From IMG/VR virus record IMGVR_UViG_3300009151_000080, positions 1 to 60,430 of that record: 60,430 nucleotides of DNA; one strand, given 5' to 3'. The notes below the pieces were generated by a model. It searched no databases and had not been told where the DNA came from. It saw nothing but the letters and a program-made list of their open reading frames with translations. This document shows positions 1,377-54,945 of this stretch, piece after piece. A program made the position numbers and the translations under genes. Position 1 is the stretch's first letter. Every line of letters starts with the position of its first letter. Source of the DNA: a virus (Duplodnaviria; Caudoviricetes).

Positions 1377-1634
1377 TTAAACTAAATTGAAATATTTTAT
1401 TAAATCCAATGTGAAGTTCTCTTCATCACTATTATTTTCTCTTCTATTAGTAGATAAAGATACATATAACTCTTTTAATTCATCATCTGATAATTTATCT
1501 ATTTTATTAAATACCTCGAATATACCCATATCAAAAGCTTTATTGTAGTTAGAGAATAAATCTATAACATCCACTACTTCTTTTGGAATTCTACTATTTG
1601 ATTTATCTTCATTAAATCTAGTTAAATGTTTCAT
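1377..1634 (-). CDS. Hypothetical protein with MKHLTRFNE leader
   Basis: 85 aa ORF with the shared N-terminal motif. Confidence 0.7.
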   Translation of the reverse strand: MKHLTRFNEDKSNSRIPKEVVDVIDLFSNYNKAFDMGIFEVFNKIDKLSDDELKELYVSLSTNRRENNSDEENFTLDLIKYFNLV

Positions 1635-1648
1635 ATATTTTATTTTTT

Positions 1649-2161
1649 TTAAAATGGTACTTCATCATCATCATAAGTTCCTTTAACACCAGCATCATAG
1701 TAGAAGTTTACAGTGAATAAAGGTTCACGTTCTTTAGTTTCCCATAGGTCGACTTCAGCATCATATTGAATAAGAATATCAGTTTGTAACTTTTTAAGAA
1801 CACCAAGTATCTTCATTATAGATTGAAGTCTTTCCTTCTTATTCAGAACAAACTGTATTGAAATATCACTTCCGTCCCAATCAACATAGAACTCACCAAC
1901 TTTTACATTAGCAATCATATTTCTTATTGTAGATGCTAAATGTCCCATTACTTCTGATTCAGAAGCATCGTCTTCATCTTCTTCAAAATCATCATCCTCA
2001 TCATCCGATCCTATCGGACTTTGGTCTTCTTCATCATCAAAGTATTCTTCACGACTGTTATAATCTTCATCATCCTTATCTTCTTCCTTTTCCCAAGGTA
2101 AGTCATTAGGAGCTTCTTCTTTAAGAAGTTGTAAATATTTCTTTAACTTCATGTTATTCAA
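1649..2161 (-). CDS. Acidic hypothetical protein (MKLKKYLQLLKE leader variant)
   Basis: 170 aa ORF, D/E-rich N-terminal half, overlaps the upstream gene stop. Confidence 0.7.
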   Translation of the reverse strand: MNNMKLKKYLQLLKEEAPNDLPWEKEEDKDDEDYNSREEYFDDEEDQSPIGSDDEDDDFEEDEDDASESEVMGHLASTIRNMIANVKVGEFYVDWDGSDISIQFVLNKKERLQSIMKILGVLKKLQTDILIQYDAEVDLWETKEREPLFTVNFYYDAGVKGTYDDDEVPF

Positions 2162-3800
2162 GTTCTATTTTTATATGATCCTCTTCAAATGTAAAATCAG
2201 GGTCTAACTTATGCGATGTAAATAACTTTTGTAAAGCTAACATATCTTTATAGAAGTGATCCAAATCCGAATCAGTTACTTCAATATCAAATACTAATCT
2301 ACCATCAACACCTTTAATTGAATCACTATTATATAAATATAACTTCTTGTATTGACGAATAAGACCTGCATATTTTCTAGCAACTTCCTCATCAAACCCT
2401 ATTTTTCTTTTAACTGAAAGGTTAGTCCAGTCAACTTCAGCACAAGCTTTGGCTAAGTTTTCCAAATATGTAATATTTTGAACCTCATCAGGGGTGTGTT
2501 CATTAAAATATCCAACTGATACATTTGTACATTCGGGAATCAATTCTATAAAGTTAGCTGAGTCTGTAAATACACCGGTTGGATCAAGATTAAGTTTCAA
2601 CCCACTTTTATTTAACTCACTACAAAGTGACTCACCAAATTCATTAGAACAACAAGTTACACCCATTTGTTCAGTAATAACTGAGTAGTAATTTCTCCTA
2701 TCAAAGGAGATCATTTTCTTTTTTCCGTCCATGAATGGATACTTACCTATTTTTTCTGCTACCTTTCCTGAACCAATACCACCACGTTCTTCACCATTAA
2801 AGAACCAATATACACCTTCAACACCCTTAGCCATCATATACATTAATACAGCAACTCCAGATTTATCATCTGCTCCTAGGATTGTTCTTCCGTCAGTTTT
2901 AATAAAGTCCTGATCATCTTTCTTGTAAGCTATCAAACCAACTTTACTCTTTGTTCTATCTACTGTATCTAAGTGGCAAGTAAATACTGTATCTGACTCA
3001 CCGATAATAGCATAATAATTTCCAAACTCATCTCTTTCAAGACCTTCTGGTAAGTATTTAACTACTTCATCTTCATGTCCGTGTGGATATGTTTCGGTCA
3101 CTAAAGATATAAATGTTTCTCTGACGTTAGTTGGTTCGAATTCAAATCTTCTTGGTTGAATAGTTTTACCAGATTTAGGTTGTCCTGAAATACCGGATAT
3201 AAGTCTATTATATTTAACTGCGAAGTCATATATATCGTCTTGGTCAGCTTTAGGGAAAAAGCTTCTACAGAACTGGGTTACTTTTATTCTACCGGACTTA
3301 CCCTTAGATATTATATCAAAATACCATTCTTTATCTGATATATCAACCTTTTGAATTTTCATCGGGTTTTTAATATCTGGATTAGAGTCAAGTGAATAAA
3401 GATCCCAAACCATTGGATCATTTTTGATCTTATCGAGCATCATCCAGAAGTCGTCGGTAAATTTAATAAGATCTTTACCACCTTCTTCTTCGTCATCCCA
3501 TTGTTTTTCGGATTGTTTTTTACTATATCCCATGTCTTCGTCCTTTTTTTCAAGTCCCATTTCAACCCTACACGCTTTGACGAATTTTTTAATCTTATCG
3601 TCTTTTACACGGTCACCTAGGACAGCTTTTATATTCTCAAAGTTTAAACTACCACTGTCTAATAATATTCTATCTTTTTGAGGTACTGAACGAGAGAAAG
3701 ATATTTTAAGTTCCTCTATAATTTTAGAGAACTCTGGTTCTTTTCTTTCAATTTCGTCAAAAATATTTAATATACTATTTGTTAGGTATGCTGCCTTCAT
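2154..3800 (-). CDS. M28/M20-family zinc peptidase with a ~220 aa N-terminal extension
   Basis: CHLDT, GADDKSG, GEERG, SFDR, TDSA and GYFNEH metal-ligand motifs. Confidence 0.8.
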   Translation of the reverse strand: MKAAYLTNSILNIFDEIERKEPEFSKIIEELKISFSRSVPQKDRILLDSGSLNFENIKAVLGDRVKDDKIKKFVKACRVEMGLEKKDEDMGYSKKQSEKQWDDEEEGGKDLIKFTDDFWMMLDKIKNDPMVWDLYSLDSNPDIKNPMKIQKVDISDKEWYFDIISKGKSGRIKVTQFCRSFFPKADQDDIYDFAVKYNRLISGISGQPKSGKTIQPRRFEFEPTNVRETFISLVTETYPHGHEDEVVKYLPEGLERDEFGNYYAIIGESDTVFTCHLDTVDRTKSKVGLIAYKKDDQDFIKTDGRTILGADDKSGVAVLMYMMAKGVEGVYWFFNGEERGGIGSGKVAEKIGKYPFMDGKKKMISFDRRNYYSVITEQMGVTCCSNEFGESLCSELNKSGLKLNLDPTGVFTDSANFIELIPECTNVSVGYFNEHTPDEVQNITYLENLAKACAEVDWTNLSVKRKIGFDEEVARKYAGLIRQYKKLYLYNSDSIKGVDGRLVFDIEVTDSDLDHFYKDMLALQKLFTSHKLDPDFTFEEDHIKIELE

Positions 3801-3810
3801 TATCTATATA

Positions 3811-4200
3811 TTATTTTTTAGATACGGTAATTTCATAAGAGTTCTTATCATCTACTCTTACTTGACCCGGATTCATACCCTGTTCTTTCTTAACAAACTT
3901 TTTCTTACAATAAACAACTAGTACATCTTCCTTATCTGATTTAGAGTTTTTTGCAGCTATTTTTGCAGCTTGTTCTATAATCTCTTTTGTTGGAACTTTA
4001 TCTTTAACTTTTATCACAACGTGAGATCCCGGAACTCCACGAGCATGGAACCAATAATCATCATCAGTCGCTAGTTCTAATGTAACATAGTCATTAGCAA
4101 TGGCATCTTTACCTTGATAGACTACAAATCCGTCTATATCTAACTTTTTATAGTTAGGTCTATCCTTTTTCGCTTCGTTAAACTTATTTAAGTATCTCAT
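3811..4200 (-). CDS. Stand-alone NFACT-R (DUF814; RqcH/NEMF C-terminal-type) RNA-binding domain protein
   Basis: GKDA.AND.VT, DYWFHARGVPGSHVVIK, AA.IAA.NSK and KFVKK..G.NPGQV motifs; N-terminal MRYLNKFNE leader. Confidence 0.85.
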   Translation of the reverse strand: MRYLNKFNEAKKDRPNYKKLDIDGFVVYQGKDAIANDYVTLELATDDDYWFHARGVPGSHVVIKVKDKVPTKEIIEQAAKIAAKNSKSDKEDVLVVYCKKKFVKKEQGMNPGQVRVDDKNSYEITVSKK

Positions 4201-4541
4201 TTGTTTAAAACTTTATTTAAATAAGATAAACCACGATAAATATCAATGATTCTTAATCTTAAAACAGCTTGAACTGCTGGTGATGTTATAGAAGTACCAG
4301 ATTTTCTAATCATAGCAGTTATATAAATAGTATCACCTCTTTTTAGTTCCTTTTGGGTTAAATCAGATGGTATGCCTATAACATTCTCGGAAACCGGAAT
4401 ATCTTTAGGATCATTGAATACATCTATGATAGATTCGATTTCGAACTTATCCTTTTTAAGATCTTCAATATTTACTTCTAAATCATGGTCTTCAATGTCT
4501 TTAGATAGTTCGTCAAATTTTTTTATCTTTTGCTCTCTCAT
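4197..4541 (-). CDS. Hypothetical protein (start reassigned to ATG 4541, MREQKIKKFDE)
   Basis: ATG just downstream of an AATATATA motif; the upstream part of the track ORF overlaps the divergent gene. Confidence 0.6.
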   Translation of the reverse strand: MREQKIKKFDELSKDIEDHDLEVNIEDLKKDKFEIESIIDVFNDPKDIPVSENVIGIPSDLTQKELKRGDTIYITAMIRKSGTSITSPAVQAVLRLRIIDIYRGLSYLNKVLNK

Positions 4542-6881: not shown

Positions 6882-7115
6882 ATGAAGAAAAAAACAACTA
6901 GGACTTTTAGTATCTCTGATGATATATGGGAGAAGTTTATGGAAGTCACAAGTAGGAATCAAATAAACCGTTCAAGGCTAATAGAGGATTATATTGAGAA
7001 GTATATAGAATCTAATGAAGAGGTTGATAGTATAGATTTGGTATTAGATAAAATTTCAAAATTTGGAATCAACTCTTTAAGTAAAGGTGAAAAAAGGTTA
7101 TTGGAGGATCAATAA
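6882..7115 (+). CDS. Ribbon-helix-helix-like small protein with DUF6576-like C-terminus
   Basis: RTFSISDDIWEKF...NRSRLIEDYIEKYI (RHH pattern) plus IDLVLDKISKFGINSLSKGEK. Confidence 0.6.
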   Translation: MKKKTTRTFSISDDIWEKFMEVTSRNQINRSRLIEDYIEKYIESNEEVDSIDLVLDKISKFGINSLSKGEKRLLEDQ

Positions 7116-7471
7116 CCTTTTATCTTCATATTATTTACACTTTTATATTTACTTTTAGGATTAGCTGTACATATTATCTTTGATAATAGATTAGCACTTT
7201 TCCTATTTATTAGAGTTGGGTTTTCTAATAAAGAATCTTTGTTTATGCTATATGATATGTGTTCTGTTTCGGTTGTTATAACAACTAGTTTATTCTCCAC
7301 TCCACCATATATTATGGACTTTATTTTTGAACCATTTAGTTCCTCTCCTCTAAATTTATAAAAGACGTAGTTCATAATTTTATTAGCTCTATCCATTTGA
7401 TTGTAGGATTTTGCTTTATCAACCGCTGATAAATAAGTGGTGCTGTTCAGTTCATTAAATTTTAATATCAT
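7109..7471 (-). CDS. Hypothetical protein with MILKFNE leader
   Basis: 120 aa ORF preceded by AATATATA. Confidence 0.65.
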   Translation of the reverse strand: MILKFNELNSTTYLSAVDKAKSYNQMDRANKIMNYVFYKFRGEELNGSKIKSIIYGGVENKLVVITTETEHISYSINKDSLLENPTLINRKSANLLSKIICTANPKSKYKSVNNMKIKGY

Positions 7472-17430: not shown

Positions 17431-19173
17431 TTAGTTAAGTAAACCTGCAGTGTCACTAACTTTAAGAGTCATGTACTGCTTTTGTGGATACCAACCTACT
17501 TCAGATACAGCGTATCTAGAACGAAGTAACATACGTGGAGCGAAAGTCGCTTCAGAGATGATACTGATTGATTGAGCCATTAAGTATGGTACGAAGATGA
17601 TACCTGGTTGATCAGGATTGTTCTTACGTCCGATAACGATACGGTTGTCGTTATATCTCATGTATGGATCAACATAGATTTGGATATCACCGATTTGACC
17701 TACTGGATAAAGTTGACCAGAACCGTTGATTTTAGACTTAGTTGGGTTGATTGTGTAACCAGCGATGTCCATGAAAGCTGCACCTAAACCACCGTTAGTA
17801 ACTGCGAATTGTGCAGGACCTACACGACCTTCAGTTGCGATGTAGTTAGAAGCGTGAAGCATCTTAGTGATCAACTTACGTTGAACAGCGTGTGTAGTTT
17901 CACCACCAACTTGAGTTTGAGTGTAAAGTGTATCTAAGTCAAAGATTGTTTGACCAGAGATAGCTGAAGAATAAGTAGAACCAGCTGCTGGAGCACTTGA
18001 TCTGTTTGAATCACCCATTTCAAAGATTTTAGCAACGATTTGCTTAGAGATTGTTTGAGACAACTCATTAACAAGGATTGATTCCATCTTTTGAACGATA
18101 TCCATACCTGTGTTAGCTTTGATGTCCTCGATTTCAGTTCTACGTAGAGAAGAAGAGATTTCGATAGTACCTACCGCGATAGACTTAGTAGAAACCTTAG
18201 GACCAATAACACCAGAGTAAGACTGATCATCTTCAGCACGACTCATAGGGTATTTACCACCTAAAGAGTTAGTAGAGAAGTTTGTAGAGAAACCAGGTAA
18301 CTGATCTTCTAAAGCTGATATTAAGTTTATTGATATGTTAGCACCACCACTTGAGAAAGTAAGACCAGGAATAGCCACTAACTGACTAGTCATTGATGAA
18401 GTTGCACCAAATGTATTTTGTGTAGCATCAAATGCCCAGCTTTGAACTGTTCCAAGTTGTGAACCGTAAGCGTTAGCTTGTCTAAATGCTCTAAAGATTG
18501 GTAAACCATCAATACGTGAGTAACCTAAGAACTCCATAACACCTGCTTTACTAGAAGGGAGAGTTGTAGTTACAGTACCAGCGTAGTTAAAAGAACTTGT
18601 ATAAAGTCTCTTACCAGAAGCACTTTGGAAACCACCAACTGTTAATGTGATATCTGATGCTGCTGTAATAGCTGCTGCTACTACAGTACCAAATGCACCT
18701 GTTTGTAACAAACCAGCTGAGTCAGCCGCATTACTAGAAGATATCTTAAACACTTGTGGAACACCTTGTGTAGTATCAACGTCGTCATATTGGAAGTCGA
18801 TGTATAACAAGTCTAACTTTGGACCAGGAGTTGGTTTTACAGAAACAAGGTCAAGACCGATTGTTTGAGCTGCAATTTTCATAGCTACTGGAAGAAGGTT
18901 TTGACCTAAATCACCAGAACCGATGTTACCAGCTGCATTTGGAGTAGTACCTGTTATGTTAAGTGTTTGACCAGAGTAGTAACCTGGCTGTGGAGATACT
19001 ACACCACCCATACCGCCAATGCTAGCATTAACGTATGCGTTTTCATTGATTGAGTGAAATTCAGCATATTCTGACATCCAATCTAGTCTGTCTTCACCTG
19101 CTACACCCATGTTTTCTAAGACTGGACCCCATTTTTTAAGAGCCTTTTGTTTGTCTATTCTAATGTGTGACAT
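17431..19173 (-). CDS. Major capsid protein (T4 gp23-like)
   Basis: KKW.PVLE N-terminus, DLVSVKP..GP, ESILVNELSQ.I, YVDPY, IIFVPY, TFAPR..LRSRY; position next to protease and portal. Confidence 0.9.
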   Translation of the reverse strand: MSHIRIDKQKALKKWGPVLENMGVAGEDRLDWMSEYAEFHSINENAYVNASIGGMGGVVSPQPGYYSGQTLNITGTTPNAAGNIGSGDLGQNLLPVAMKIAAQTIGLDLVSVKPTPGPKLDLLYIDFQYDDVDTTQGVPQVFKISSSNAADSAGLLQTGAFGTVVAAAITAASDITLTVGGFQSASGKRLYTSSFNYAGTVTTTLPSSKAGVMEFLGYSRIDGLPIFRAFRQANAYGSQLGTVQSWAFDATQNTFGATSSMTSQLVAIPGLTFSSGGANISINLISALEDQLPGFSTNFSTNSLGGKYPMSRAEDDQSYSGVIGPKVSTKSIAVGTIEISSSLRRTEIEDIKANTGMDIVQKMESILVNELSQTISKQIVAKIFEMGDSNRSSAPAAGSTYSSAISGQTIFDLDTLYTQTQVGGETTHAVQRKLITKMLHASNYIATEGRVGPAQFAVTNGGLGAAFMDIAGYTINPTKSKINGSGQLYPVGQIGDIQIYVDPYMRYNDNRIVIGRKNNPDQPGIIFVPYLMAQSISIISEATFAPRMLLRSRYAVSEVGWYPQKQYMTLKVSDTAGLLN

Positions 19174-19259: not shown

Positions 19260-21416
19260 TTAAAGATTTTTGAATCTTTCCATAATAGAAGTCATTTCCT
19301 TATCAGAGAGTTTATCTTCTTGAATAAGAGCTTCATGAGCAACTAATTTCTTAGAAACTGATTCGTTTTTCTTGAGACTTCTTGTTAACCAGAAATGTTC
19401 AACTTTTGATTCTGTTGTAAGATCTGAGTACAATCTAGCTTGTGATAAGATAGACTTCTTTGAAGACTCATTTAATTGTTTCCAGATTGGCTTAATGTTT
19501 TCAGGCATCAATCTGATTAGTCTTTCTTCAAGACCTTCGTTTTTAGTTGATAACGCTTCGTTGATAAGTTTTAAAACTTCAGAACTTGTAAAGTAGCTTC
19601 TTTCGTTTATGTAAAGTTTTACTTGTTCTTGCTCTTCGTTAGTTAAGCTGTAATAGCTATCTACTTGAGACTTGTTTAAGAACTTTAAGAAGTGTAGATC
19701 ATTTGTTTCAGAAACCTTACGTTTTTTAGCTTCTGCAATAAGTTTATCTATTTGTTTTGATAATTCGGTATCAGAGTTACCTTCGAATTCCTGAGTCATT
19801 TCTTCCTCTTCGTGGCCCATACCCTCTTCTTCTTCATGAGGCATCATTTCTTCTTCTTCTTCGTGTGGCATAGTTTCTTCTTCTTCATGTCCCATCATTT
19901 CGTGTGGCATCATTCCTTCTTCTTCTTCATGACCCATCATTTCGTGTGGCATCATTTCTTCTTCATGACCCATCATTTCTTCTTCAGAAGCTTCTTCAAA
20001 ACCGAACTCTTCAAGTGTTGGTAATAACTTACCTTTACCCTTGTTTTCATTTAATTTAGTACCGTTAAGTTTTTCAGAAATCATACCTGCGTAAGAAACT
20101 GTTTTGTCAAGATTTTCTGCGATATATTCAGAATAAGCAATATTGTCATCTAAGTGTTCAGCAATGTATTCAGAGTAAGCGATGTTACCTTCAACATGTT
20201 CTGCTAAGTATTCAGAATAAGCAATAGAGTTATCCAAATGTTCTGCTAAGTACTCACCATAAGAAATGTTCTTATCTAAGTTTTCAGCGATATACTCAGA
20301 ATAAGCAATGTTCTTATCTAAGTTTTCAGCTAAGTATTCAGAATAAGAGATGTTCTTATCTAAGTTTTCAGCTAAGTACTCAGAATAAGTAATATTCTTA
20401 TCCAAGTTTTCAGCTAAGTACTCAGAATAAGTAATATTCTTATCCAAGTTTTCAGCGATATACTCAGAGTAAGTGATGTTCTTATCTAGGTTTTCAGCTA
20501 AGTACTCACCGTAGTTGATAGCTTTTTCAAGGTTTTCAGCTAGGTAGTCATTGTGAGAAATAAGTTTATCAGCAGTAGTTCTTAATGATTTGTTCTCATT
20601 AACTACAATCTGAACCTTATCAGCTAAGTAGTCTAAGTACTTAACGATCTGTGTGTTAGTCTTGTTGAGGTCTTCATAATACTCAAGAAGTTGTTCTAAC
20701 TTTTTCGGATTGATGTTACCTGTTTTTAAAGCAGATTTAACATCCTTCTTAGTTGTTGCAATCTCTTTAATGAGATATTTAGAATAGTCAGTTAACTGCT
20801 GCTTGGTAACGAATTCATTCTTGTTCATGTTGAATAGTTCGTTTATTTTTGACTCGTCGGACATTTCATATATCCTATAGTTAGTTTCCTTTGTAATTGG
20901 GCGACCAAGAGACTCATTGATAGAGTGCATTCTAGCAGAAGCAAAACCAGGATCAGCAACTATGTCATATGTAAACAATTTCTTTAGAGTTACTGTACCA
21001 TCATTTTCTGTGATACCAGCCGCTCTAGAAGAAACGAATACAGGACATCCGTCATCGACTAATGTTCTTGCCTCTTTACCCCAATATGTATTAAGCAATT
21101 TGATCTGCCCGTCAACACGATTAGACTCCTTGATAAAAGAAGCCTTCTTGATAATGTGTGATGCACGTGATAATGAAGTATCAAATACATCTGGGTGATC
21201 GAATTCGCCATAAACAACTCCAAAATCAGATATACGTTGGTTCAATTCTTCTAAGCATGGTAAAAACTTATCTGCAGTATATATTCTTTCGTTACGGTTT
21301 TTTACACCGAACTCAGTAAATACACCACCCAATAAGTATTCCTTCTTAGAACCTGATCCAACAATATTCTCCACGAGTGGTTTAGTGTTGTTTTCTACGA
21401 TTAAAATTGGTTTCAT
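19260..21416 (-). CDS. Prohead protease (T4 gp21-like) fused to a scaffold/core region
   Basis: KNRNERIY, GEFDHP, VSSRAAG, DIVADPGF catalytic motifs, followed by coiled and repeat region. Confidence 0.88.
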   Translation of the reverse strand: MKPILIVENNTKPLVENIVGSGSKKEYLLGGVFTEFGVKNRNERIYTADKFLPCLEELNQRISDFGVVYGEFDHPDVFDTSLSRASHIIKKASFIKESNRVDGQIKLLNTYWGKEARTLVDDGCPVFVSSRAAGITENDGTVTLKKLFTYDIVADPGFASARMHSINESLGRPITKETNYRIYEMSDESKINELFNMNKNEFVTKQQLTDYSKYLIKEIATTKKDVKSALKTGNINPKKLEQLLEYYEDLNKTNTQIVKYLDYLADKVQIVVNENKSLRTTADKLISHNDYLAENLEKAINYGEYLAENLDKNITYSEYIAENLDKNITYSEYLAENLDKNITYSEYLAENLDKNISYSEYLAENLDKNIAYSEYIAENLDKNISYGEYLAEHLDNSIAYSEYLAEHVEGNIAYSEYIAEHLDDNIAYSEYIAENLDKTVSYAGMISEKLNGTKLNENKGKGKLLPTLEEFGFEEASEEEMMGHEEEMMPHEMMGHEEEEGMMPHEMMGHEEEETMPHEEEEEMMPHEEEEGMGHEEEEMTQEFEGNSDTELSKQIDKLIAEAKKRKVSETNDLHFLKFLNKSQVDSYYSLTNEEQEQVKLYINERSYFTSSEVLKLINEALSTKNEGLEERLIRLMPENIKPIWKQLNESSKKSILSQARLYSDLTTESKVEHFWLTRSLKKNESVSKKLVAHEALIQEDKLSDKEMTSIMERFKNL
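20088..20549 (-). repeat. 11 tandem 42-bp (14 aa) coding repeats EY[LI]AENLDKNI[STA]YS
   Basis: Counted in the translation and visible in the DNA. Confidence 0.9.
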
Positions 21417-24878: not shown

Positions 24879-24922
24879 GAAGACGTGTTATTTATGAATA
24901 TATATTAAAAAATAAATAACAT

Positions 24923-29520: not shown

Positions 29521-29612
29521 TTTACAATCTCCTAAAATAATATATACCATAATGAAGTATCTGAAATTTACAATCTCCTAAAATAATATATACCATAATG
29601 AAGTATCTGAAA
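29521..29612 (+). repeat. Exact 46-bp tandem duplication containing AATATATAC and ATGAAGTATCTGAAA
   Basis: 29521-29566 is identical to 29567-29612. Confidence 0.9.
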
Positions 29613-32663: not shown

Positions 32664-33590
32664 ATGATTATATCAAATACAGTAATGGTAAAAGTAAATA
32701 CAAAAAATATCAAATCACTAAAAGAACACGGATATAACAACTTAAAAATTAAAAATGAAATAGAAATAAAAGTTGAGCACCTATCAAAAGGATCACACTA
32801 CCTAATAGATGTTTGTTGCGATGTTTGCCAAAAACAAAGAAGTATAATGTATAAAGAATATCTATATAATTTAAAGAGTGGTGGGTATTATTCTTGTCAA
32901 GGAATTTGTAGCACTGGAAAAAATAAAAAAACTTGTTTAGAGAAATATGGTGTAGATAATCCAACAAAATCAGTAGAAATTTTAGAAAAAAGACATCTCA
33001 ATAATATATTAAAATATGGTTATGAATATAATACACTATTCAACGAAAAATTAAAACTATCAATAATGGATAAATATGGTGTAGATAATCTATCTAAATC
33101 AGAAGAAGTTAGAGAAAAAAGAAAGAAAACAATGATAGAAAGATATAACGTTGAGTATTATGTTTTATCAAAAGAATTTAAAAATAAGAGCGAAAAGAGT
33201 TGTATAAAAAACTATGGTAAATCACACCCAATGAAAATAAAAGAGGAAGTTAAAAAAAGATTGAATAAAATGGGATTAGACTTTGAAACTAACGATTTCA
33301 TAATTTATAGAAGATTGGTAGATAAATTCACAAAATATAATAGAAATAAATTATTAGAAAATTGGAACGGAAATGATGCATATGATGGGGAATACATTAA
33401 AGAAAACTTCAATTTAAAGGGACAACATGGGGATTATCCAACTATTGACCACATCAAATCTGTTAAAGAATGTTTTAATGAAGGATTACTACCAATATAT
33501 GTAGCAGATATTAATAATCTATGTATAACGAAAAGAAGAATAAATTCAAAAAAAGGATTTAAAAATAACATTGAGTCGCTGAGTAAGTAA
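32664..33590 (+). CDS. Putative HNH homing endonuclease with Zn ribbon and KYGVDN repeats
   Basis: CCDVC, EKYGVDNP repeats, C-terminal TIDHIKS...NL...RINSKK. Confidence 0.65.
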   Translation: MIISNTVMVKVNTKNIKSLKEHGYNNLKIKNEIEIKVEHLSKGSHYLIDVCCDVCQKQRSIMYKEYLYNLKSGGYYSCQGICSTGKNKKTCLEKYGVDNPTKSVEILEKRHLNNILKYGYEYNTLFNEKLKLSIMDKYGVDNLSKSEEVREKRKKTMIERYNVEYYVLSKEFKNKSEKSCIKNYGKSHPMKIKEEVKKRLNKMGLDFETNDFIIYRRLVDKFTKYNRNKLLENWNGNDAYDGEYIKENFNLKGQHGDYPTIDHIKSVKECFNEGLLPIYVADINNLCITKRRINSKKGFKNNIESLSK

Positions 33591-34173
33591 GAATAAAATT
33601 AGTTTTAATTACCACACCTAAAGCTTCCGCAACAACAACAACATCTTTAAGACATTCTTCTCTTGCCCCGCCCACAACCGTAACTTCTAACCCTTTCCAA
33701 CTATTCAAAAGATTTAAAAGTTTTTTAGGACACTCAAACCATTGATGGTTGTTTCCTATAAAAACTATAATAGTACCAACTTTTGTCGGAAAATACTGGC
33801 CCTTTTTTAGTTGTTTTTTATTCTCTAGATCTTTTATCTGATTGTAAACATTCTTATCAAGATTCTTTCTATAGAAATCAGCATTAACAGCATAGTTATA
33901 TCTCTTTTCAATAAGATCTTTTTGGTTTGGGAAATTATATAAATCGTTACTTATAGGTATTTTAGGGTTACTATGATATAAATAATCAGTATCAACATCT
34001 TTTCCTTCCACATGATTGTCCCACAGTTGATAAACATTTGTAAACTGATTACAAAATTTAATCAACTCGTTTAAATACATTGGTGTATAGAATTTTTTAA
34101 ATGACTTCTGTACGTCAACGATTAGAAGATTAGATACTTCATTAAGTTCTTCAAATAACTTTAAGTGTTTCAT
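33559..34173 (-). CDS. Isochorismatase-like cysteine hydrolase with MKHLKLFEE leader
   Basis: LLIVDVQ..F, IEKRY and VVGGAREECL (catalytic D-K-C pattern). Confidence 0.6.
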   Translation of the reverse strand: MKHLKLFEELNEVSNLLIVDVQKSFKKFYTPMYLNELIKFCNQFTNVYQLWDNHVEGKDVDTDYLYHSNPKIPISNDLYNFPNQKDLIEKRYNYAVNADFYRKNLDKNVYNQIKDLENKKQLKKGQYFPTKVGTIIVFIGNNHQWFECPKKLLNLLNSWKGLEVTVVGGAREECLKDVVVVAEALGVVIKTNFILTYSATQCYF

Positions 34174-34247: not shown

Positions 34248-34868
34248 TTAAGAAGGTAATTCTTCTTCATTTTCTTCCTCTTCCTCTTCTTCTGGATTTA
34301 CTTCTTCATATCCCTGACCTTGTGCCTGAGCTTGTCCCTGAGGAGCTGCTTGACCTTGAGCTTGTCCCTGTCCTTGTGGTTGAGTCTCAGCTTGAACTTG
34401 TGGTTGAGCTTGTCCCTGAGGAGCCATTTGACCCTGAGCTTGTGGAGCTGGTTGAGCTTGTCCTTGAGGAGCCATTTGACCTTCTGGAGCCATTTGACCT
34501 TCTGGAGCCATTTGTGTTTGTGCTTGTCCTTGAGGAGCCATTTGAGCTGGAGCTTGTTGAGCACCTGATTGACCCTGTCCTTGAGCACCACCAACAAGAG
34601 CGTTAGCCGGCATCTTATCAGCGTCTAATCCGTTCTGAACCACCCATTTAATGATTTCTTCAGCTAAGTCCATATCACCAAAGAACTGTCTCAAATTCTT
34701 ACCAACGTTGTCCTTAACTTTTTTAACGTAAGCGTTTAGTAAAGATTGTGGAACATCTGCCATAATTCTTACTTTGTAGATATCATTAACTTGAAGTACA
34801 GACTCTTTAATAATGTCGTCTCTTCTTCTTTTAACTCTATAGCTTTCAAACATTCTGATGTGTTTCAT
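34248..34868 (-). CDS. Hypothetical protein with MKHIRMFE leader and Q/A/P/G repeat tail
   Basis: QMAP[QE]GQ repeats and acidic end. Confidence 0.7.
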   Translation of the reverse strand: MKHIRMFESYRVKRRRDDIIKESVLQVNDIYKVRIMADVPQSLLNAYVKKVKDNVGKNLRQFFGDMDLAEEIIKWVVQNGLDADKMPANALVGGAQGQGQSGAQQAPAQMAPQGQAQTQMAPEGQMAPEGQMAPQGQAQPAPQAQGQMAPQGQAQPQVQAETQPQGQGQAQGQAAPQGQAQAQGQGYEEVNPEEEEEEENEEELPS

Positions 34869-39258: not shown

Positions 39259-39303
39259 AGGAATATTTATTTTTTCAATATATATAAGAAAAATAGTGTT
39301 CCT

Positions 39304-41995: not shown

Positions 41996-44900
41996 ATGAG
42001 ATACCTAAAGTCTAGGAACGATTTTCTATATAGAGAAGTTATAGTAGATAAGTCAAATATCAATGAACAGATTAAGTCATCTAGAATGATTCAAGAAAGT
42101 TTTGAGAACGATATTAGATGGGGGGACTCTCTCGTTGGTAGACTTATTAACTCAGTAATAAGATCGGTTAAAATAGGTTATAATGAAACTAAAATTCCAA
42201 AGATTTTGGAAGAGTTGCAAGGTCAATTGGATCAAATAGTATCAGAATCCTTAACTAGAGAAACCGGAGCAAAATTCAATCAATATTATATAATGGTTGC
42301 TCTTGAGGAAATGAAAGATATTTGTTTATCACCAATGTCTGATGAAGAGAAATTAGATCTCCTAATAGGATGGGATGGTTCAACACCAATGTGGGATCCT
42401 AATGATCCAAGAGCAGATATACCTGGACTAATTGAAAATAGAAGACCTATTACAAAATCTATTATGCAAAACATAATAGATAAAATAACAACAAAACTAC
42501 CTGATCTCGAAAAGTATGTAGGTAAAAATAGGGATGAATTTATAGATGACTTATGTGACTTCACTGAAGAGTTAAGAAAAATTACTATAAAAACTCCGGT
42601 TGGTGGTAACAGTGCTCAAATAAGACCATTTTCTGCAAGAATGAATTCTATACTTACTCGATTACAAAGTGTAAATGAGTCATTGAGATTGTCTAGGTAT
42701 TCCAATTTTATAAATGAAGATAATGAAACCACATCAAATATAAAACAACTAAAAGATTTAGCTTCTGAACTATCTAAGGAAATTGAAGGAAAGGAAGAAA
42801 ATGAAATAAAAGGACTTGATAAGTTTAAACAGTTTAAGGGAGTTTTCTTTAAGTTAAATGATAATGAGAAAGAAAAACTAAAAGTAAAAGTTGATGATGA
42901 AGACAAAAATCTTTATGATCTTCTAGTTGATCTTTTAGGTGAAGGTGGGGAGTCTGATAAACCCAATAATATTGAACAAATATCATGGAACAAGGTTATA
43001 CAGAGCTTTACAAAAAGTGGAGCATCTAATTTAATTGCTGATATTAAAGCAACACTCGATAATATAAATTCAAATGATTTAGAAAAGAAAAGAGTTGCTA
43101 CCGAAGTTATAAACGGTATAACTAAACAATTAGTTATTAACACATCAACTATTGGTAAGAATAGAATTAGTTACGAACAACTTATAAAGGAGGATATTTT
43201 CAGGGATAGAAATACCAGCATTAATAACATTTCCAAATCAATATCACTATTGTCAAATGTTATAATGGCTTATAAAGGTCAGGATATATTAAATAGTCAA
43301 GGACCAAAAGCAGAATTTATAAAAAACTTCATAAAGAATTATGAAGCAATAACGTTAAAGAGAAATGAAAGTATCGAGATAAATGAGGCAGATAAAAGAT
43401 CGTTAAAGTATTTCAATGATAAGAAGAATAGATCACTTAACAACCAGAATCAAAATCAAAAGAGTGGAGAACCTAATGTGAATCAAAAAAACAATCAGGA
43501 TCAAAACCAAAAGAGTGGAGAACCTAAATCAGATACTACTAAGATGGGTTCTTCACAAGTATCAGTCAATACTATTAATATACTAAAATCTATTTTGGTG
43601 TTGAATGACTTAATTTCTAAAAAAGAAAGTTGGATCTTATTGGAGAATAATTTCAATCCGGGTGGCGGTACTGGTAGTACAAATCCGACTGGTGGTATTG
43701 GTAGCTCCCCTTCAGATGATGATGATGATGACAATAAAGTCAATAAGGACAATAGTGCAGAAAGGACTGTTAAGAATCTATGGAATACTATGTGGAAACC
43801 ACATGAGGACGAAATGATGAGTAAGGGTGAAGGACCACATAGACTAACTCAAAGGATGGTCGATGACCTACAATCAATGATTGATAAAGGAGAAGATAAA
43901 AAAGTTCTGGATCTTAGTAAAAGACCAGATCCGTTGATTGCTATTGTTCGGGTTTGTAGAAAAGCTCATAATACTTATTTTACAGAAGTAATACCATCTG
44001 GTAGAAAAGATGGTATGGTTTCTAATAAAACATTTAGAGAATATGTTTATCTAGGATCAGGCTCAAGACCCAATCCAAGTAGACTAGACGGTGAAGGTCC
44101 GTGGGCTGTTAAAAGTATATGGGAAAAATGGACAGACGGTGTTACAAAAATATTAGAAGATCAGCAATATAGAAAGATACTTTCTAATGTTGAGTTCATT
44201 GTACCTGGTGCAGAAGATGTATTCAACCCAAAGAAAAATGAGTCCAAAATATATGAAGCGGAAACAGGAAATAGAGTAGATGCTGGTGAACTAACTAAGG
44301 GTAGTAAGCATGGTACTATCATTCTTGACTTCTTATCAGAAATGATTGATACGGAATCTGTTAGGGATTTTGAGGGGTCTCGTAAGAAACTTATGAAGAA
44401 ATACTTTGGAATAGTTACTGGCCCATCCGAAGATCCTAGACCAGTAAGAAGCACTGAACTCCCAGGAGCAAGTGAACAAAAAAATAGTATTAGATGGACT
44501 ACATTTAGTAAGAAAAAGTTTTCGGAGGATAATGATAAACATAAATTTTTCTTGTTCCCAGTTAAAGATGAGAGAAAGACATCTCGCCTTAAACATACAG
44601 CTATATTCCTTCAAGTTCTTGATGTTAAAAAAGAAGACGGAAAAGAATATGTGTATTTTAAATTCACATATGATAGACAAACGATGGCTAAAAAATGGAA
44701 AGACAAAGGAGGGGGTCAAACCAGAGGGTTAGACTATCATGATTGGTCCACAAAAGATTCAAGTACAGAAACCAAATATCTATATTATGGTATTATGCGA
44801 AATACATGGGATTCTGGTAGAATAGCTATAGTATACTGTAATATAAGAGATAAGTCAACTCCGGTTGTTAATATTTGGGGAGAACCACAGTCTGGAATTA

Positions 44901-45172
44901 AGTATAATTTTATTATAGATGATAATAGCTCAAAAAACCTACCAAATTCAACTTATGATACCAAAAAGGCTTTAGTTAAAATATCTAAGTTACAAAGATT
45001 TGATGCTAATGGAGTTGGATCTGATATAAAGCAAAAGGATCTAATCTGTTTTAATGAAAAAAAGGACGATGAGATCCCAATGATTGATTTCTGTGATCAA
45101 AATGGAAAACCAACTCAAGATAATTTAAATCAAAAGCTTATAAAACAAGGTAAAACTTGGGGATTTTGGTAA
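41996..45172 (+). CDS. Large hypothetical protein (MRYLKS leader), candidate internal head protein
   Basis: Start moved to ATG 41996 after AATATATAC; many [ILV]xE sites and low-complexity linkers. Confidence 0.7.
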   Translation: MRYLKSRNDFLYREVIVDKSNINEQIKSSRMIQESFENDIRWGDSLVGRLINSVIRSVKIGYNETKIPKILEELQGQLDQIVSESLTRETGAKFNQYYIMVALEEMKDICLSPMSDEEKLDLLIGWDGSTPMWDPNDPRADIPGLIENRRPITKSIMQNIIDKITTKLPDLEKYVGKNRDEFIDDLCDFTEELRKITIKTPVGGNSAQIRPFSARMNSILTRLQSVNESLRLSRYSNFINEDNETTSNIKQLKDLASELSKEIEGKEENEIKGLDKFKQFKGVFFKLNDNEKEKLKVKVDDEDKNLYDLLVDLLGEGGESDKPNNIEQISWNKVIQSFTKSGASNLIADIKATLDNINSNDLEKKRVATEVINGITKQLVINTSTIGKNRISYEQLIKEDIFRDRNTSINNISKSISLLSNVIMAYKGQDILNSQGPKAEFIKNFIKNYEAITLKRNESIEINEADKRSLKYFNDKKNRSLNNQNQNQKSGEPNVNQKNNQDQNQKSGEPKSDTTKMGSSQVSVNTINILKSILVLNDLISKKESWILLENNFNPGGGTGSTNPTGGIGSSPSDDDDDDNKVNKDNSAERTVKNLWNTMWKPHEDEMMSKGEGPHRLTQRMVDDLQSMIDKGEDKKVLDLSKRPDPLIAIVRVCRKAHNTYFTEVIPSGRKDGMVSNKTFREYVYLGSGSRPNPSRLDGEGPWAVKSIWEKWTDGVTKILEDQQYRKILSNVEFIVPGAEDVFNPKKNESKIYEAETGNRVDAGELTKGSKHGTIILDFLSEMIDTESVRDFEGSRKKLMKKYFGIVTGPSEDPRPVRSTELPGASEQKNSIRWTTFSKKKFSEDNDKHKFFLFPVKDERKTSRLKHTAIFLQVLDVKKEDGKEYVYFKFTYDRQTMAKKWKDKGGGQTRGLDYHDWSTKDSSTETKYLYYGIMRNTWDSGRIAIVYCNIRDKSTPVVNIWGEPQSGIKYNFIIDDNSSKNLPNSTYDTKKALVKISKLQRFDANGVGSDIKQKDLICFNEKKDDEIPMIDFCDQNGKPTQDNLNQKLIKQGKTWGFW

Positions 45173-45214: not shown

Positions 45215-45640
45215 ATGGCCGACTTTTCTAAATTTACATACTCTGTATTTGTTATAGATTTAAGAGATTTTAAAACCATAGAGGATTTAAAATCTTTTTT
45301 AGTTGAAATGAAACTGGATGTTATAGACCCCAATTTCTTCTGGGAATGCAAAACCGGAAACCACAGGGGATATCCTCCTATGAATAAAGTATGGCTTGAT
45401 AAGGCGTCACTTTATGCAGTTGGGTACGAAACAAAAAAAGAAAGGAATTTATTTCCTTTCTTTTTGGATACTATTACTAATCTCGAACCACTTAGGAGAG
45501 GACAAACTTGTCCATTTGACTCTATTGAATTAAATAAAAAAGTTGAAGATTTATCATTAGACTCTATCTTGGAAAAGATACACGCTAATGGTATTTCATC
45601 CCTTACAAAAGAAGAGAAAGAATTCTTGGATAAAAGTTAA
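45215..45640 (+). CDS. Hypothetical protein with DUF6576-like C-terminus
   Basis: LDSILEKIHANGISSLTKEEKEFL; TTTG-N20-TATCTTTG promoter at 45165-45196. Confidence 0.65.
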   Translation: MADFSKFTYSVFVIDLRDFKTIEDLKSFLVEMKLDVIDPNFFWECKTGNHRGYPPMNKVWLDKASLYAVGYETKKERNLFPFFLDTITNLEPLRRGQTCPFDSIELNKKVEDLSLDSILEKIHANGISSLTKEEKEFLDKS

Positions 45641-46281
45641 TTTCCAATATTACTACCACCACGAGCGTCACCTGTATTACTCTTCTGTCTATTTCTATTA
45701 ATCTCATCAGCCTTTAGCCAAATCTGTTTAGCTAAAGGTTGACTACATTTTAAAACTTCTGCTTTGTTGAAAGTTCCACCAGTTCTGGTGGATGGTCCTT
45801 TTCTACCCCTTAAATGTATACCAGTTCCTAAACCCCCAAATGTTCTGTCTTTATGAACATTATCTACCTTACTAATCATAACAGTGTATTCTGGATCACC
45901 GGTAGTTCTAAAGTCAATGTGTTTCATCATATCAACTCTATATAAAGTATGATCCTTTGTAAATGGTTGACCTAAGAAGAAGAATGCATCTTTTGTAGAA
46001 GGAGTAACATTACTACCATTTCCATCAAATTGATTAAACCTACCCGATTTATTATAATCTTTACTTAATCCATTTAAGTAGGTCATTATTTCTCTTGCTA
46101 GATCTTCGTCATTATTTTCTTTTTCAGGAGTAGATGAGTTAGGACCTGTGTTAGATCTTTTTTCTTTTTCAGATCCTACTTTATCTTTTATAGCAGATCC
46201 TAATTTTCCAGCCATCCTACCTATAGTAGTAAATAACTCGTTTTGCTTGTCAAATCCACTGAATGACTCTAAATGTTTCAT
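45637..46281 (-). CDS. Hypothetical protein with MKHLESF leader
   Basis: 214 aa ORF. Confidence 0.7.
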   Translation of the reverse strand: MKHLESFSGFDKQNELFTTIGRMAGKLGSAIKDKVGSEKEKRSNTGPNSSTPEKENNDEDLAREIMTYLNGLSKDYNKSGRFNQFDGNGSNVTPSTKDAFFFLGQPFTKDHTLYRVDMMKHIDFRTTGDPEYTVMISKVDNVHKDRTFGGLGTGIHLRGRKGPSTRTGGTFNKAEVLKCSQPLAKQIWLKADEINRNRQKSNTGDARGGSNIGN

Positions 46282-46352
46282 ATATTTTTAGTATAGTTTT
46301 TATTATATATATTTATCTCTAAAAATGTATTTATGATATTAATATATATAAT

Positions 46353-46928
46353 ATGAAGTATATAAATACATATTCCAATTTCATATCTGAAAAGTTTATC
46401 CCACAAGAAACTGATCCACCTGAACAAGTTAGTGGTATGAATAATTTTAATGATATGGAAAAATGGATAAACGAGTTTAACTCAAAGAAGACAGCTTTAC
46501 AGAATATTTATGTAAACTATAAAACTGAACAAGATCTGGTAAAGACTCTTCAAACACAGAAGTACATCAACTCTCCAAATTTGAAACTAATGAAATTTAA
46601 TAACCCCCTTTTAGGTATGTGGGCTAAATCGTGTGAGATAAGAAGAGAAGTAAATGATATACAGAAAGGTATAGATGATTTAAATAATACCATAAAGGAT
46701 GATACCACTAATGTGGCTTCCAACCCAGCAACTGCTGAAAGTGGTAAGGAAAGTATTAATCTGAAGAAACAAGACCTTACGAATAAACAGAAATTACTAC
46801 AGGATAAAAATCTTGAACTTGCTAATCAAGAGAAGAAGGTTAGAGACGAGCTAAAGAAAATGATGGATAATAATAAAAAGTCCAAAACCCAAATAAACAT
46901 GTATAACGACCAAAAAGGTGAAAAGTGA
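46353..46928 (+). CDS. Coiled-coil protein with MKYINTYSNFISE leader
   Basis: 191 aa ORF. Confidence 0.7.
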   Translation: MKYINTYSNFISEKFIPQETDPPEQVSGMNNFNDMEKWINEFNSKKTALQNIYVNYKTEQDLVKTLQTQKYINSPNLKLMKFNNPLLGMWAKSCEIRREVNDIQKGIDDLNNTIKDDTTNVASNPATAESGKESINLKKQDLTNKQKLLQDKNLELANQEKKVRDELKKMMDNNKKSKTQINMYNDQKGEK

Positions 46929-53421: not shown

Positions 53422-53422
53422 T

Positions 53423-54229
53423 ATGCCTATATACACTATATCAAGAAGACCAGACGAAATACCAGATTTAATACATTGGTTTGATGCTGCAGATATATCT
53501 ACTATAAATAATGGTAGTTCAGATACCAACCTACCATATGTTTTAAAGTTACAAGATAAAGTATCAAGTATGTTATTATCATCAGATACTCATGGTGATA
53601 TACCAACACTAGTTGGACCAAACCCTGAACTAAATTACAATACTGGTATATATTTTAGTGGACATCCCGGTACAGATACTTTAAGTGGATTCTTTCCGGA
53701 CACTAGTTTCAATACTAAAAAAACAATATTCTATGTTTTTACAACAAAACCATACATAGATGAGAGGTTCTATTGTTATAAATTTTCAATACTTAATCCA
53801 GGTAATCGATTACTATCCGGAGCCTTCGGTGGTTGGTCTAATATATCCTTATATACAAATGGAGATTCTCTATTTTATTTAGAAACTCCAGAATCTTTAT
53901 CATACGCTGATTTAGATTTTGGTAAGATACCAAAAAATAAAATCAACATAGTTTCAATAAGTACCGATGATATAGTTAAATCAGTTCGAATGGATCCTGT
54001 CGATACGGAATATTTATACACTACCCCAAATGGTATATCACTTGAAACACGATCAAAACTTATTTTAGGAGATGTCACTGATGTATCATACACACCAGAT
54101 CCCAGTAACAAACCATTTGCGAATCAGTTGGATAATATTTTTTGTGAGATGTTGATTTACAATAGAGCTTTAACGGAAGAAGAAGTAAATAAAGTAAACC
54201 AATATTTGAAAACTAAATGGATTGGTTAA
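53423..54229 (+). CDS. Putative fibre/receptor-binding beta-sandwich (LamG-like) protein
   Basis: HWFDAADI; EMLIYNRALT.EE..KV..YL.TKW. Confidence 0.55.
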   Translation: MPIYTISRRPDEIPDLIHWFDAADISTINNGSSDTNLPYVLKLQDKVSSMLLSSDTHGDIPTLVGPNPELNYNTGIYFSGHPGTDTLSGFFPDTSFNTKKTIFYVFTTKPYIDERFYCYKFSILNPGNRLLSGAFGGWSNISLYTNGDSLFYLETPESLSYADLDFGKIPKNKINIVSISTDDIVKSVRMDPVDTEYLYTTPNGISLETRSKLILGDVTDVSYTPDPSNKPFANQLDNIFCEMLIYNRALTEEEVNKVNQYLKTKWIG

Positions 54230-54488
54230 TAAGATCCAGTACTATTTGTAGGTTATTATTATTAAACCCTTCCAATGGTTTACCACCTTTTTTAAGATAA
54301 TCTTGATATAATGATTGATAATCATCATAAACATAAAAATTACCATCTTTATCCATGAGTACTTCAGTACTACTTGGTGATAAGGTAACTGGTAGTTTCT
54401 GTTCGGGATATGATGGTCCCATGTGTTGTCCGACTAATTCCCAACCACTTATTGATTCTAAGAACTGAAACCAATTTTTAATCTTCAT
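54213..54488 (-). CDS. Hypothetical protein with MKIKNWFQFLE leader
   Basis: Start moved to ATG 54488, overlapping the upstream stop. Confidence 0.6.
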   Translation of the reverse strand: MKIKNWFQFLESISGWELVGQHMGPSYPEQKLPVTLSPSSTEVLMDKDGNFYVYDDYQSLYQDYLKKGGKPLEGFNNNNLQIVLDLINQSI

Positions 54489-54945
54489 TATTAATATGTA
54501 TTTTTTCAAAGAACTCTTCTCCACTACGAAGTGAGTAAGTATCCTTTTGGAAGTTATATTTTATATCATATAAGAATCTATCATAGAGATAAGCTTTTTC
54601 ATCATGTTTAAGACTTATTATAGACTTCTCATTTTCAAAGTCATTATAAATAGAAATAATCTCATCTTCTATTCTACCATTTTTATCATAAAGATCACAT
54701 ATAACCTTTTTCTTACTTTCCAGTAGATTAGATATTTTAAGAAAAGCATCATTTTTGGATAAACCAGAAAATTCCCTAAAGTCAGATTCTAATATAGAAT
54801 CATACTTAGATAAGAAATCTTCTTCCCTTTTGGTTAGAGTAATACGATCATGAATCTTATCCAAGATAAGATTTAACTCTATATCCTTTACAGACTCACG
54901 AAGTGATAGATATTTAGACCATTTTTCGAATTTCATTATTATCAT
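54478..54945 (-). CDS. Hypothetical protein with leader variant and DUF6576-like segment
   Basis: MKFEKWSKYLSLRE; LNLILDKI....LTKREEDFL. Confidence 0.6.
   Translation of the reverse strand: MIIMKFEKWSKYLSLRESVKDIELNLILDKIHDRITLTKREEDFLSKYDSILESDFREFSGLSKNDAFLKISNLLESKKKVICDLYDKNGRIEDEIISIYNDFENEKSIISLKHDEKAYLYDRFLYDIKYNFQKDTYSLRSGEEFFEKIHINNED

Follow-up and report, generated by a model that had tools for sequence, protein, structure and literature searches.

Short terminal peptides that send unrelated enzymes into an HK97-fold shell are familiar from the encapsulins, cellular nanocompartments whose cargo-loading peptides are usually C-terminal, remain uncleaved and bind the shell rather than a scaffold. 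Among phages, the closest described system is the capsid-targeting sequence of bacteriophage T4, where, as set out in passages of PMC9026906, internal proteins are targeted to the prohead core by propeptides of 10–19 residues, ten residues of IPIII suffice, and the tag brings foreign proteins into heads. In this sequence, given as MKTYQEFIAE (PMC8442874), residues 4 and 7 matter for targeting and residues 8 and 10 for processing, Asp in place of residue 10 stopping processing while targeting persists (PMC9026906), and passages of the latter source name only a few further T4 proteins with such propeptides. The hyperplastic internal-protein loci of T-even phages encode diverse proteins that keep only a capsid-targeting-like N-terminus and have been read as arms-race effectors (PMC3012670, PMC9026906). 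The gp21-type proteases of T4 and the giant phages cut after a Glu behind a short motif, and in giant phages the propeptides of head proteins each hold several processing sites (PMC5694885, PMC9026906). Here we describe a comparable element in the virus record IMGVR_UViG_3300009151_000080, the whole of which (60,430 bases) was analysed and is called “the window” below: a short N-terminal peptide, the leader, that recurs at the start of otherwise unrelated open reading frames (ORFs). We regard it as certain that this N-terminal peptide is real, that it is portable and that it is under selection, and from its sequence and surroundings we lean towards reading it as a capsid-targeting propeptide of the T4 type whose use has widened greatly within one lineage of huge, Mahaphage-clade phages.

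Huge phages are known almost solely from metagenomes, and most of their genes are orphans. The window (estimated ~11% complete, 26–37% GC across its length) is a fragment of the genome of a huge phage of the Mahaphage type whose capsid, portal and prohead-protease genes are T4-like, and it additionally encodes a T4-type large terminase and a 1270-residue sheath. A search for sequencing runs brought up freshwater and aquatic DNA metagenomes, with no RNA run among them. By capsid protein identity, the nearest records are the uncultured huge phages LR745206 (66%) and LR756502 (64%), followed by LR756504 and LR756501 (50% each) and LR756500 (34%), with the Lak phages at 29% and cultured Bacteroidota jumbo phages such as PTm1 at 27%. 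Al-Shayeb et al. (2020) placed complete genomes of 634, 636, 642 and 735 kb in the “Mahaphage” clade, for which Bacteroidetes hosts were predicted (PMC7162821).

In order to delimit the leader we used LR756502, a complete 642-kb relative, for training and comparison. ORFs of at least 50 amino acids (aa) were called with a simple, crude greedy caller, which found 70 of them in the window and 967 in LR756502. A position matrix, refined over repeated rounds, settled on 145 leader ORFs, comprising 10 of the 68 Met-start ORFs of the window and 135 of the 907 in LR756502 (~15%, or about one gene in seven in that complete genome), as compared with 7 of 3714 internal-Met windows of the same proteins, some of which are probably true starts within over-extended gene calls. 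The scores were bimodally distributed, with 157 N-termini above 0 and 134 above 12. The preliminary description of this DNA had allowed that the motif might be no commoner than in shuffled N-termini; this is not the case, as a matrix trained on LR756502 only scored 10 of the 68 N-termini of the window at more than 8 bits, whereas 2000 rounds of shuffling gave 0.07 on average and never more than 2, and none of 1056 other six-frame ATGs of the window exceeded the same score. A gapped hidden Markov model (HMM), likewise built from LR756502 only, scored the ten window leaders at 10.6–18.9 bits, and the regular expression ^M[KR].[LI]..F matched 8 of 2141 six-frame ATGs in the window, all eight being called gene starts. 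Chance resemblance is thus ruled out by the regular expression, matrix and shuffle controls.

The consensus reads M-K-[HY]-[LI]-[KR]-x-[YF] followed by N-E-S, K-I-F-E-S or E-x-F, which can be summarized as M-K-[HY]-[LI]-[KR]-x-[YF]-[NKE]-x-[FS]-E. The motif begins at Met1 and its first Glu falls at positions 8–14 in 138 of 145 leaders (318 of 892 among other N-termini); two residues before this Glu stands F, I, L, Y, V or M (110/138) and directly after it often Ser (54/138), statistics that are partly circular because positions of the Glu region were part of the matrix. The leader does not show the hydrophobic core that follows the basic N-terminus of a Sec/Tat-type signal peptide, the consensus being charged and polar with isolated aromatics, and a transmembrane-like stretch of 19 residues occurs in only 5 of the 145 carriers. 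The ten leader-bearing ORFs of the window are as follows.

1377..1634, minus strand: leader ORF of 85 aa, MKHLTRFNEDKS... (matrix 19.4, HMM 17.1 bits); no Pfam or PHROG match and no known family
3811..4200, minus strand: leader ORF of 129 aa, MRYLNKFNEAKK...; an NFACT-R RNA-binding domain (PF05670, E 5e-15) begins at residue 22
26844..27239, minus strand: leader ORF of 131 aa, MKKIRKFNEFFY... (matrix 18.3, HMM 16.7 bits)
29598..30311, plus strand: leader ORF of 237 aa, MKYLKYFESQSE... (matrix 16.3, HMM 14.6 bits); ATATATA ends 5 nucleotides (nt) upstream of its ATG
31334..31969, minus strand: leader ORF of 211 aa, MKHIKLFKESKE... (matrix 21.6, HMM 18.9 bits)
33559..34173, minus strand: leader ORF of 204 aa, MKHLKLFEELNE...; beyond about residue 10 the fold is isochorismatase/nicotinamidase-like
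34248..34868, minus strand: leader ORF of 206 aa, MKHIRMFESYRV... (matrix 14.4, HMM 10.6 bits); its orthologue in LR756502 (57% identical) likewise has the leader
41996..45172, plus strand: leader ORF of 1058 aa, MRYLKSRNDFLY..., with an atypical Arg at position 7 (matrix 15.4, HMM 14.6 bits)
45637..46281, minus strand: leader ORF of 214 aa, MKHLESFSGFDK... (matrix 16.4, HMM 14.4 bits)
46353..46928, plus strand: leader ORF of 191 aa, MKYINTYSNFISEK..., matching a T4-like core expression (see below), its body a long helical hairpin

The preliminary description had named 15 starts with a common motif, M-[KR]-[HYK]-[LI]-x-x-[FY]-x-E. Ten of them (1634, 4200, 27239, 29598, 31969, 34173, 34868, 41996, 46281 and 46353) carry the leader, and the Tyr or Phe at position 7 of that motif stands, while its Glu is found at position 8, 9 or 11. 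The other five starts could not be upheld: the HMM scores of 7471 (6.9 bits) and 4541 (5.7 bits) lie inside the decoy range, and 2152, 54488 and 54936 have negative matrix scores and fall outside the 60 best HMM rows, the weakest of which scores 5.2 bits. These five are listed below.

7109..7471, minus strand: doubtful member, MILKFNELNS... (HMM 6.9 bits, decoy range)
4197..4541, minus strand: doubtful member, MREQKIKKFDELSK... (HMM 5.7 bits, decoy range)
54213..54488, minus strand: unsupported start, MKIKNWFQFLES (matrix −10.4; outside the 60 best HMM rows)
54478..54936, minus strand: unsupported start, MKFEKWSKYLSLRE (matrix −12.5)
1649..2152, minus strand: unsupported start, MKLKKYLQLLKE (matrix −9.5)

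The ORF at 7109..7471 may nevertheless be a divergent member, since MILKFNE resembles a shorter, B-type dialect of the leader that occurs in relatives (see below).

The proteins behind the leader have little in common. With residues 1–13 removed, the bodies of the 145 leader proteins fall into 123 BLASTP clusters at E ≤ 1e-3, 111 of them singletons and the largest family having 10 members, so that the leader is portable and the earlier remark that its carriers are otherwise unrelated is borne out at the BLAST level. PHROGs gave no match for any of the ten window carriers, and those with any assignment are two, the NFACT-R protein that begins at 4200 (confirmed by Pfam) and the isochorismatase-like protein that begins at 34173, an identification that holds at the level of fold (VIA-align Z up to 9.5) and has no Pfam match behind it. 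At a Pfam threshold of E ≤ 1e-5, 8 of 135 carriers in LR756502 were matched (SET, phage lysozyme, HNH, PQ-loop, DUF6576 twice, GNAT and T4-type RNA ligase 1) vs. 28 of 140 random size-matched non-carriers of 60–370 aa, a sample that includes one carrier of a variant leader. The leader is accordingly found on bodies as different as NFACT-R, isochorismatase-like, SET, lysozyme, GNAT, HNH and Rnl1, and its carriers are mostly small orphans clustered in arrays, with 58 of 135 lying within the first 100 kb of LR756502.

The leader is also kept at its place over many homologues. When the 120 best homologues of the isochorismatase-like protein were compared, 115 began with it and five proved to be over-extended calls with an internal Met-leader. 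Among the 120 best NFACT-R homologues, 112 began with it and eight retained [FY]-N-E-[SAG]-K-K. In the family of the 191-aa protein at 46353 (53 sequences, 33% mean identity), Glu13 is among just seven nearly invariant positions. Paralogues without the leader were found in LR756502: of two lysozymes, one has both the leader and an N-terminal extension of 110 residues whereas the other lacks both, and a protein with an HExxH motif carries the leader whilst its leaderless paralogue is shorter at the N-terminus. LR756502 also encodes an 797-aa ORF beginning MRYLKQREEF that adjoins the orthologue of the window's 46353 ORF, much as 41996..45172 lies near 46353 in the window; we infer from position only that the two are orthologues, their bodies being unlinked by BLAST. 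NFACT-R also occurs fused behind an extra domain of ~90 residues (locus L014 of LR756502, 9253–9942; proteins P0144, P0159, P0166 and P0172), and in these fused forms the leader is at the start of the extra N-terminal domain and the junction retains ...N-E-S-K-K-D-K-P-N....

Structural models place the leader outside the fold, where it appears to be unstructured. The AlphaFold model of the isochorismatase-like protein, from a 37-sequence alignment, has a mean predicted local distance difference test score (pLDDT) of 76.5, with residues 1–11 as coil below 50 and the first strand at residues 15–21. VIA-align returned at its top 28 isochorismatase/nicotinamidase/cysteine-hydrolase entries (Z 7.5–9.5, 115–132 residues aligned), a few of which we ourselves assign to this superfamily. 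These alignments begin at model residues 7–13 and, in several of the solved chains, at their own residues 0–2, so that these cellular enzymes lack the leader extension. The model of the 191-aa protein (46353) has a mean pLDDT of 91.5 and consists of long helical hairpins, whereas residues 1–10 average 48 and are followed by a Pro-rich linker. With Foldseek, neither model found a counterpart in PDB at E ≤ 0.001, the helical protein drawing generic coiled-coil rows only, and a protein atlas search with ORF 46353–46925 gave no usable match.

We then compared the leader with the T4 tag. As on IPI, IPII, IPIII and Alt of T4, it is a peptide of about ten residues at the N-terminus of otherwise unrelated proteins; position 4 is aromatic or hydrophobic and position 7 is Phe or Tyr, with [ILV]-x-Glu following at the T4 spacing in a subset of the leaders, both phages have a gp21-family protease and gp20/gp23-type head genes, and the tag marks hypervariable accessory proteins. 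Some leaders come closer still. The T4-like core ^M.{1,6}[YF]..F[ILV].E, which MKTYQEFIAE itself fits, was matched by 1 of 68 ORFs in the window (46353), 19 of 907 in LR756502 (control 1/3294) and 21 of 499 in LR756501 (control 2/2044). In the 46353 ORF this core, T-Y-x-x-F-I-x-E (T-Y-S-N-F-I-S-E), is spaced as in MKTYQEFIAE. A DNA pattern for M-x-K-x-[YF]-x-x-F-I-x-E gave 12 matches in four of five megaphage genomes and none in reversed controls, with examples such as MIKTFDEFINE and MIKKYIQFINE, and the first of these, like TYSNFISE of the window, nearly repeats the T4 sequence. There are differences too. The exact decapeptide occurs twice in the T4 genome, in ipII and ipIII, whereas the megaphage leader is on 10 of 68 window and 135 of 907 LR756502 ORFs; the main megaphage dialect (MKHLKxY...) differs from the T4 tag in sequence and varies in the position of its Glu, and its putative cargo is acidic rather than basic. 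The leader-gene arrays that crowd the first 100 kb of LR756502 recall the T-even internal-protein loci, although each runs to tens of genes and other leader genes are dispersed between core genes, as the window shows. The giant phages phiKZ, 201phi2-1 and SPN3US likewise have a gp21-related protease, which in them cleaves many head proteins behind the Glu of a short motif, but the propeptides of their head and ejection proteins are mostly longer than 100 residues with no shared portable decapeptide, and 8 to 19 proteins per phage are processed, not over 100.

The leader occurs in dialects. In the main form, L or I stands at position 4, Y or F at 7 and Glu at 8, 9 or 11. A strict DNA pattern for this form, searched on both strands, gave (matches/reversed controls) 4/0 in the window, 71/2 in LR756502, 64/0 in LR745206, 34/3 in LR756504, 14/0 in LR756500 and 0/1 in LR756501 (735 kb), where the matrix found 7 weak matches among 499 ORFs of the first 400 kb. 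LR756501 instead uses the B-type dialect, M-I-K-K-[YF]-x-x-[FY], which is shorter by two residues and was found on 22 of its 499 ORFs (internal controls 0/2044) and on 4 of 907 in LR756502; both forms are present inside single orthologous families. In Lak-A2, PTm1, pT24, MaF61 and MA9V-1, where other dialects were not searched for, the strict pattern gave 0/0. The exact pattern M-K-H-L-K-x-Y-K-I-F-E was found at 30 IMG/VR loci, on contigs of up to 476 kb, and once in 185,579 species genomes, on an 18-kb contig of a metagenome-assembled genome (L095); the short IMG/VR loci and L095 together hold 62 leader ORFs. L095 is titled Rickettsiaceae, has 30% GC and carries MKHLKTYKIFES, and is probably a mis-binned phage contig.

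A candidate processing enzyme is encoded among the head genes of the window, as follows.

17431..19173, minus strand: gp23-like major capsid protein (PF07068, E 8e-26), with S-I-N-E-N conserved in its N-terminal region
19260..21416, minus strand: prohead protease fused to a scaffold-like region, 718 aa (phrog_207 “head maturation protease”, E 2.6e-30)
22384..24132, minus strand: gp20-like portal protein (PF07230, E 2e-55)

The protease part of the 718-aa protein spans residues ~5–245. It scored 19.8–22.4 bits against PF03420 (Peptidase_S77), under the cut-off of 27, and since the PHROG matches while PF03420 stays sub-threshold, we regard it as a distant relative and not a Pfam-level S77 member. 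H74, S129 and S130, candidates for the catalytic His and Ser, are invariant in 30 homologues (72% mean identity), as are N167-E168-S169 of the sequence SINES, just past the protease domain. Residues ~285–445 consist of ~11 tandem 14-residue repeats YSEYLAENLDKNIx, each with [LI]-A-E-[NH], and are followed at ~470–540 by a low-complexity stretch rich in Glu, His and Met; this continuation of the protease resembles a scaffold that is built into the ORF and would destroy itself, its cleavage motif occurring many times over. Similar sites recur in the capsid protein, where [IM]-[NH]-E-N stands at residues 42–45 in five of eight aligned sequences, while LR756500 has L-Y-E-N, PTm1 has T-I-N-E-N and Lak-A2 is without such a site. 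Searches of PDB sequences with phmmer gave no match for either the protease-scaffold or the capsid protein. The product of the ORF at 19260..21416 is the presumed processing enzyme of the leaders.

The capsid-targeting reading is the best supported because of the likeness to the T4 tag, the T4-type protease and scaffold and the shared hydrophobic-x-Glu sites, and also because the leader is a disordered extension and its carriers are small, orphan and arrayed as T4 internal proteins are. Under this reading, the short, basic-then-acidic amphipathic N-terminal peptide (M-K-[HY]-[LI]-K-x-[YF]...E) would dock newly made proteins on the core scaffold of the assembling prohead. The gp21-family protease, which shares its ORF with the scaffold, would next cut behind the Glu of hydrophobic-x-Glu; the mature proteins would be left inside the head and would probably pass into the host together with the DNA. 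The routing of proteins into the prohead proposed in the preliminary description is thus consistent with a portable leader that lies outside the fold and is selected as a peptide, its hydrophobic-x-Glu end, the gp21-family protease and the T4-like variant, while the five unsupported members drop out of it. More tentatively, and with somewhat less confidence than in the reading itself, we suggest that more than 100 proteins per Mahaphage-type genome may be loaded into the capsid through this T4-derived N-terminal tag and delivered with the DNA. Enzymes would be among them, such as the hydrolase of isochorismatase/nicotinamidase-like fold, NFACT-R, SET and GNAT proteins and a lysozyme.

Several points weigh against the capsid reading. 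Its evidence is drawn wholly from sequence and models, and capsid cargo amounting to ~15% of the genes would go far beyond any known case. Carriers include a PQ-loop membrane protein, an HNH endonuclease and an Rnl1-type RNA ligase, none of them obvious head cargo, and the bodies of leader proteins are acidic (median pI 5.1 vs. 5.8 for other proteins), unlike the highly basic internal proteins of T4 (PMC8442874). The Glu of the leader is not at one fixed position, standing at 8, 9 or 11. The strict leader pattern is absent from all five of Lak-A2 and the cultured relatives PTm1, pT24, MaF61 and MA9V-1, even though PTm1, pT24 and MA9V-1 are annotated with a prohead core scaffold/protease beside the capsid gene. 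Late expression of leader genes is not established, because the promoter-like motif in front of them (ATATATA, described below) is shared with metabolic genes, and the tie of leader genes to a copy of this motif 0–10 nt from the ATG is unexplained by a role in the capsid.

If the capsid-targeting reading is true, ~15% of the genes of such a phage would be classed at once as virion-delivered cargo, and the tag would flag a very large set of candidate effectors of host takeover and anti-defence, so that the proteins which uncultured megaphages inject could be read from sequence alone. It would suggest that the large capsid carries a large protein payload, so that protein loading would partly explain the large capsids and genomes of megaphages, and it would extend to a different scale a mechanism known from a few T4 proteins. 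Proteins could then be loaded into capsids by means of a tag of ten residues, a use that is open to testing. Even with a destination other than the capsid, a portable address tag on one viral gene in seven would be unusual. We found no such leader described in the titles, abstracts and passages (supplements excluded) of the literature on huge and jumbo phages and on capsid targeting, and passages of the Mahaphage paper (PMC7162821) and of a jumbo-phage survey (PMC7824862) do not mention it.

The alternative that survives best, unlikely though we consider it, is that the leader is a portable address or docking tag, cleaved or not, whose target is not the capsid: a chaperone or AAA+ machine encoded by the phage, for instance, or an assembly site close to the membrane, or some different compartment that the phage builds. 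A portable, conserved and unstructured N-terminal peptide fits such a role equally well, the very large number of carriers (135/907) is in its favour, and so are the PQ-loop, Rnl1 and HNH carriers, for which the head is not an obvious destination. It leaves unexplained, however, the near-identity of some variants to the T4 capsid-targeting sequence and the hydrophobic-x-Glu end that the leader has in common with sites in the capsid protein and the protease, and no candidate receptor was identified.

A further alternative starts from the DNA around the start codon. The extended motif T[AT]ATATATA occurs 44 times in the window (10.3 ± 3.4 expected), for example at 24899–24907, 39279–39287 and 46303–46351, with several copies between divergent gene pairs. 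The preliminary description had noted that most leader genes sit behind ATATATA, which is correct for 8 of the 10 leader ORFs (motif within 60 nt upstream) but applies to 31 of 60 other window ORFs too. Non-leader genes behind it include those for the capsid protein, protease, portal, sheath, terminase, thyA, Fpg, ClpS and homing endonucleases; since structural and metabolic genes alike have it, we regard ATATATA as a general phage promoter-like element, and a marker of structural or late genes only is ruled out by thyA, Fpg, ClpS and the homing-endonuclease genes. The motif has two spacing classes, with the ATG 2–8 nt or 18–35 nt downstream, and the close class suggests leaderless mRNAs. It is this close spacing that is tied to the leader, as the gap between the end of ATATATA and the ATG is 0–10 nt for 70 of 145 leader genes vs. 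84 of 892 others, and 11–53 nt for 13 vs. 111.

This association is real and unexplained, and lends some support to a promoter-plus-leader unit; the portable “promoter + leader cassette” of the preliminary description can be kept to that extent, with the reservation that the motif precedes many non-leader genes and is missing within 60 nt of the ATG in 62 of 145 leader genes. It could also mean that the leader reflects the mechanics of gene starts, as a preferred opening for (near-)leaderless mRNAs from ATATATA or as a “landing pad” of promoter plus first codons spread by recombination, an explanation that we hold to be improbable. Besides the close motif, the tandem arrays of leader genes fit it, as does a modest skew at leader codons 2 and 3 only (AAA 0.82 vs. 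0.61, CAC 0.52 vs. 0.33). At positions 4, 5 and 7–11, however, synonymous codon usage is approximately genome-wide while L/I, K/R and Y/F interchange, and the constraint therefore falls on the peptide. The 84 non-leader genes with the same close motif and the 62 leader genes without any also speak against it, and the leader persists over hundreds of diverged orthologues. That the carriers are one very old paralogous family, with the leader as its best-conserved N-terminal remnant, is very improbable, for although a sub-family of 10 shares a second downstream motif (D-I-L-x-D-L-x-D-D-G type) and BLAST is insensitive for small, fast-evolving proteins, the folds are clearly different (NFACT-R, isochorismatase-like, SET, lysozyme, GNAT, HNH, Rnl1, helical hairpin), 111 of 145 bodies are singletons and leaderless paralogues exist.

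Other features of these genomes deserve a brief record. A 94-aa ORF at 26176–26460 (minus strand) has a weak match to Sigma70 region 2 (E 0.0018, below the cut-off) and could be a phage late sigma-like factor for ATATATA promoters. In a sub-group of membrane-type carriers of LR756502 (L005 16658, L007 15990, L030 4849 and L032 926), the leader is followed by N-E-E-[IV] and then by a hydrophobic segment rich in Gly and Ala, and one of them has a PQ-loop domain. The DUF6576 motif was found in four otherwise different small proteins (window 6882–7115 and 45215–45640, both plus strand; LR756502 L007 6786–7484 and L008 18691–19167), at or near the C-terminus in three and at residues 13–44 in the fourth; two of the four are leader carriers, and the motif may be a second portable module. 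The window further encodes a ClpS adaptor homologue at 36541–36822 (plus strand; PF02617, E 1.3e-16), which might provide a link to N-end-rule degradation of processed proteins, and a microbial-type poly(ADP-ribose) glycohydrolase domain at 141–908 (minus strand; PF10021, E 2.9e-22). Among the head and replication genes lie a GIY-YIG gene, two DUF7487 paralogues and a TnsA-like endonuclease (15071–15919, 21950–22369, 24923–25429 and 32664–33590), which are likely homing-endonuclease-type insertions.

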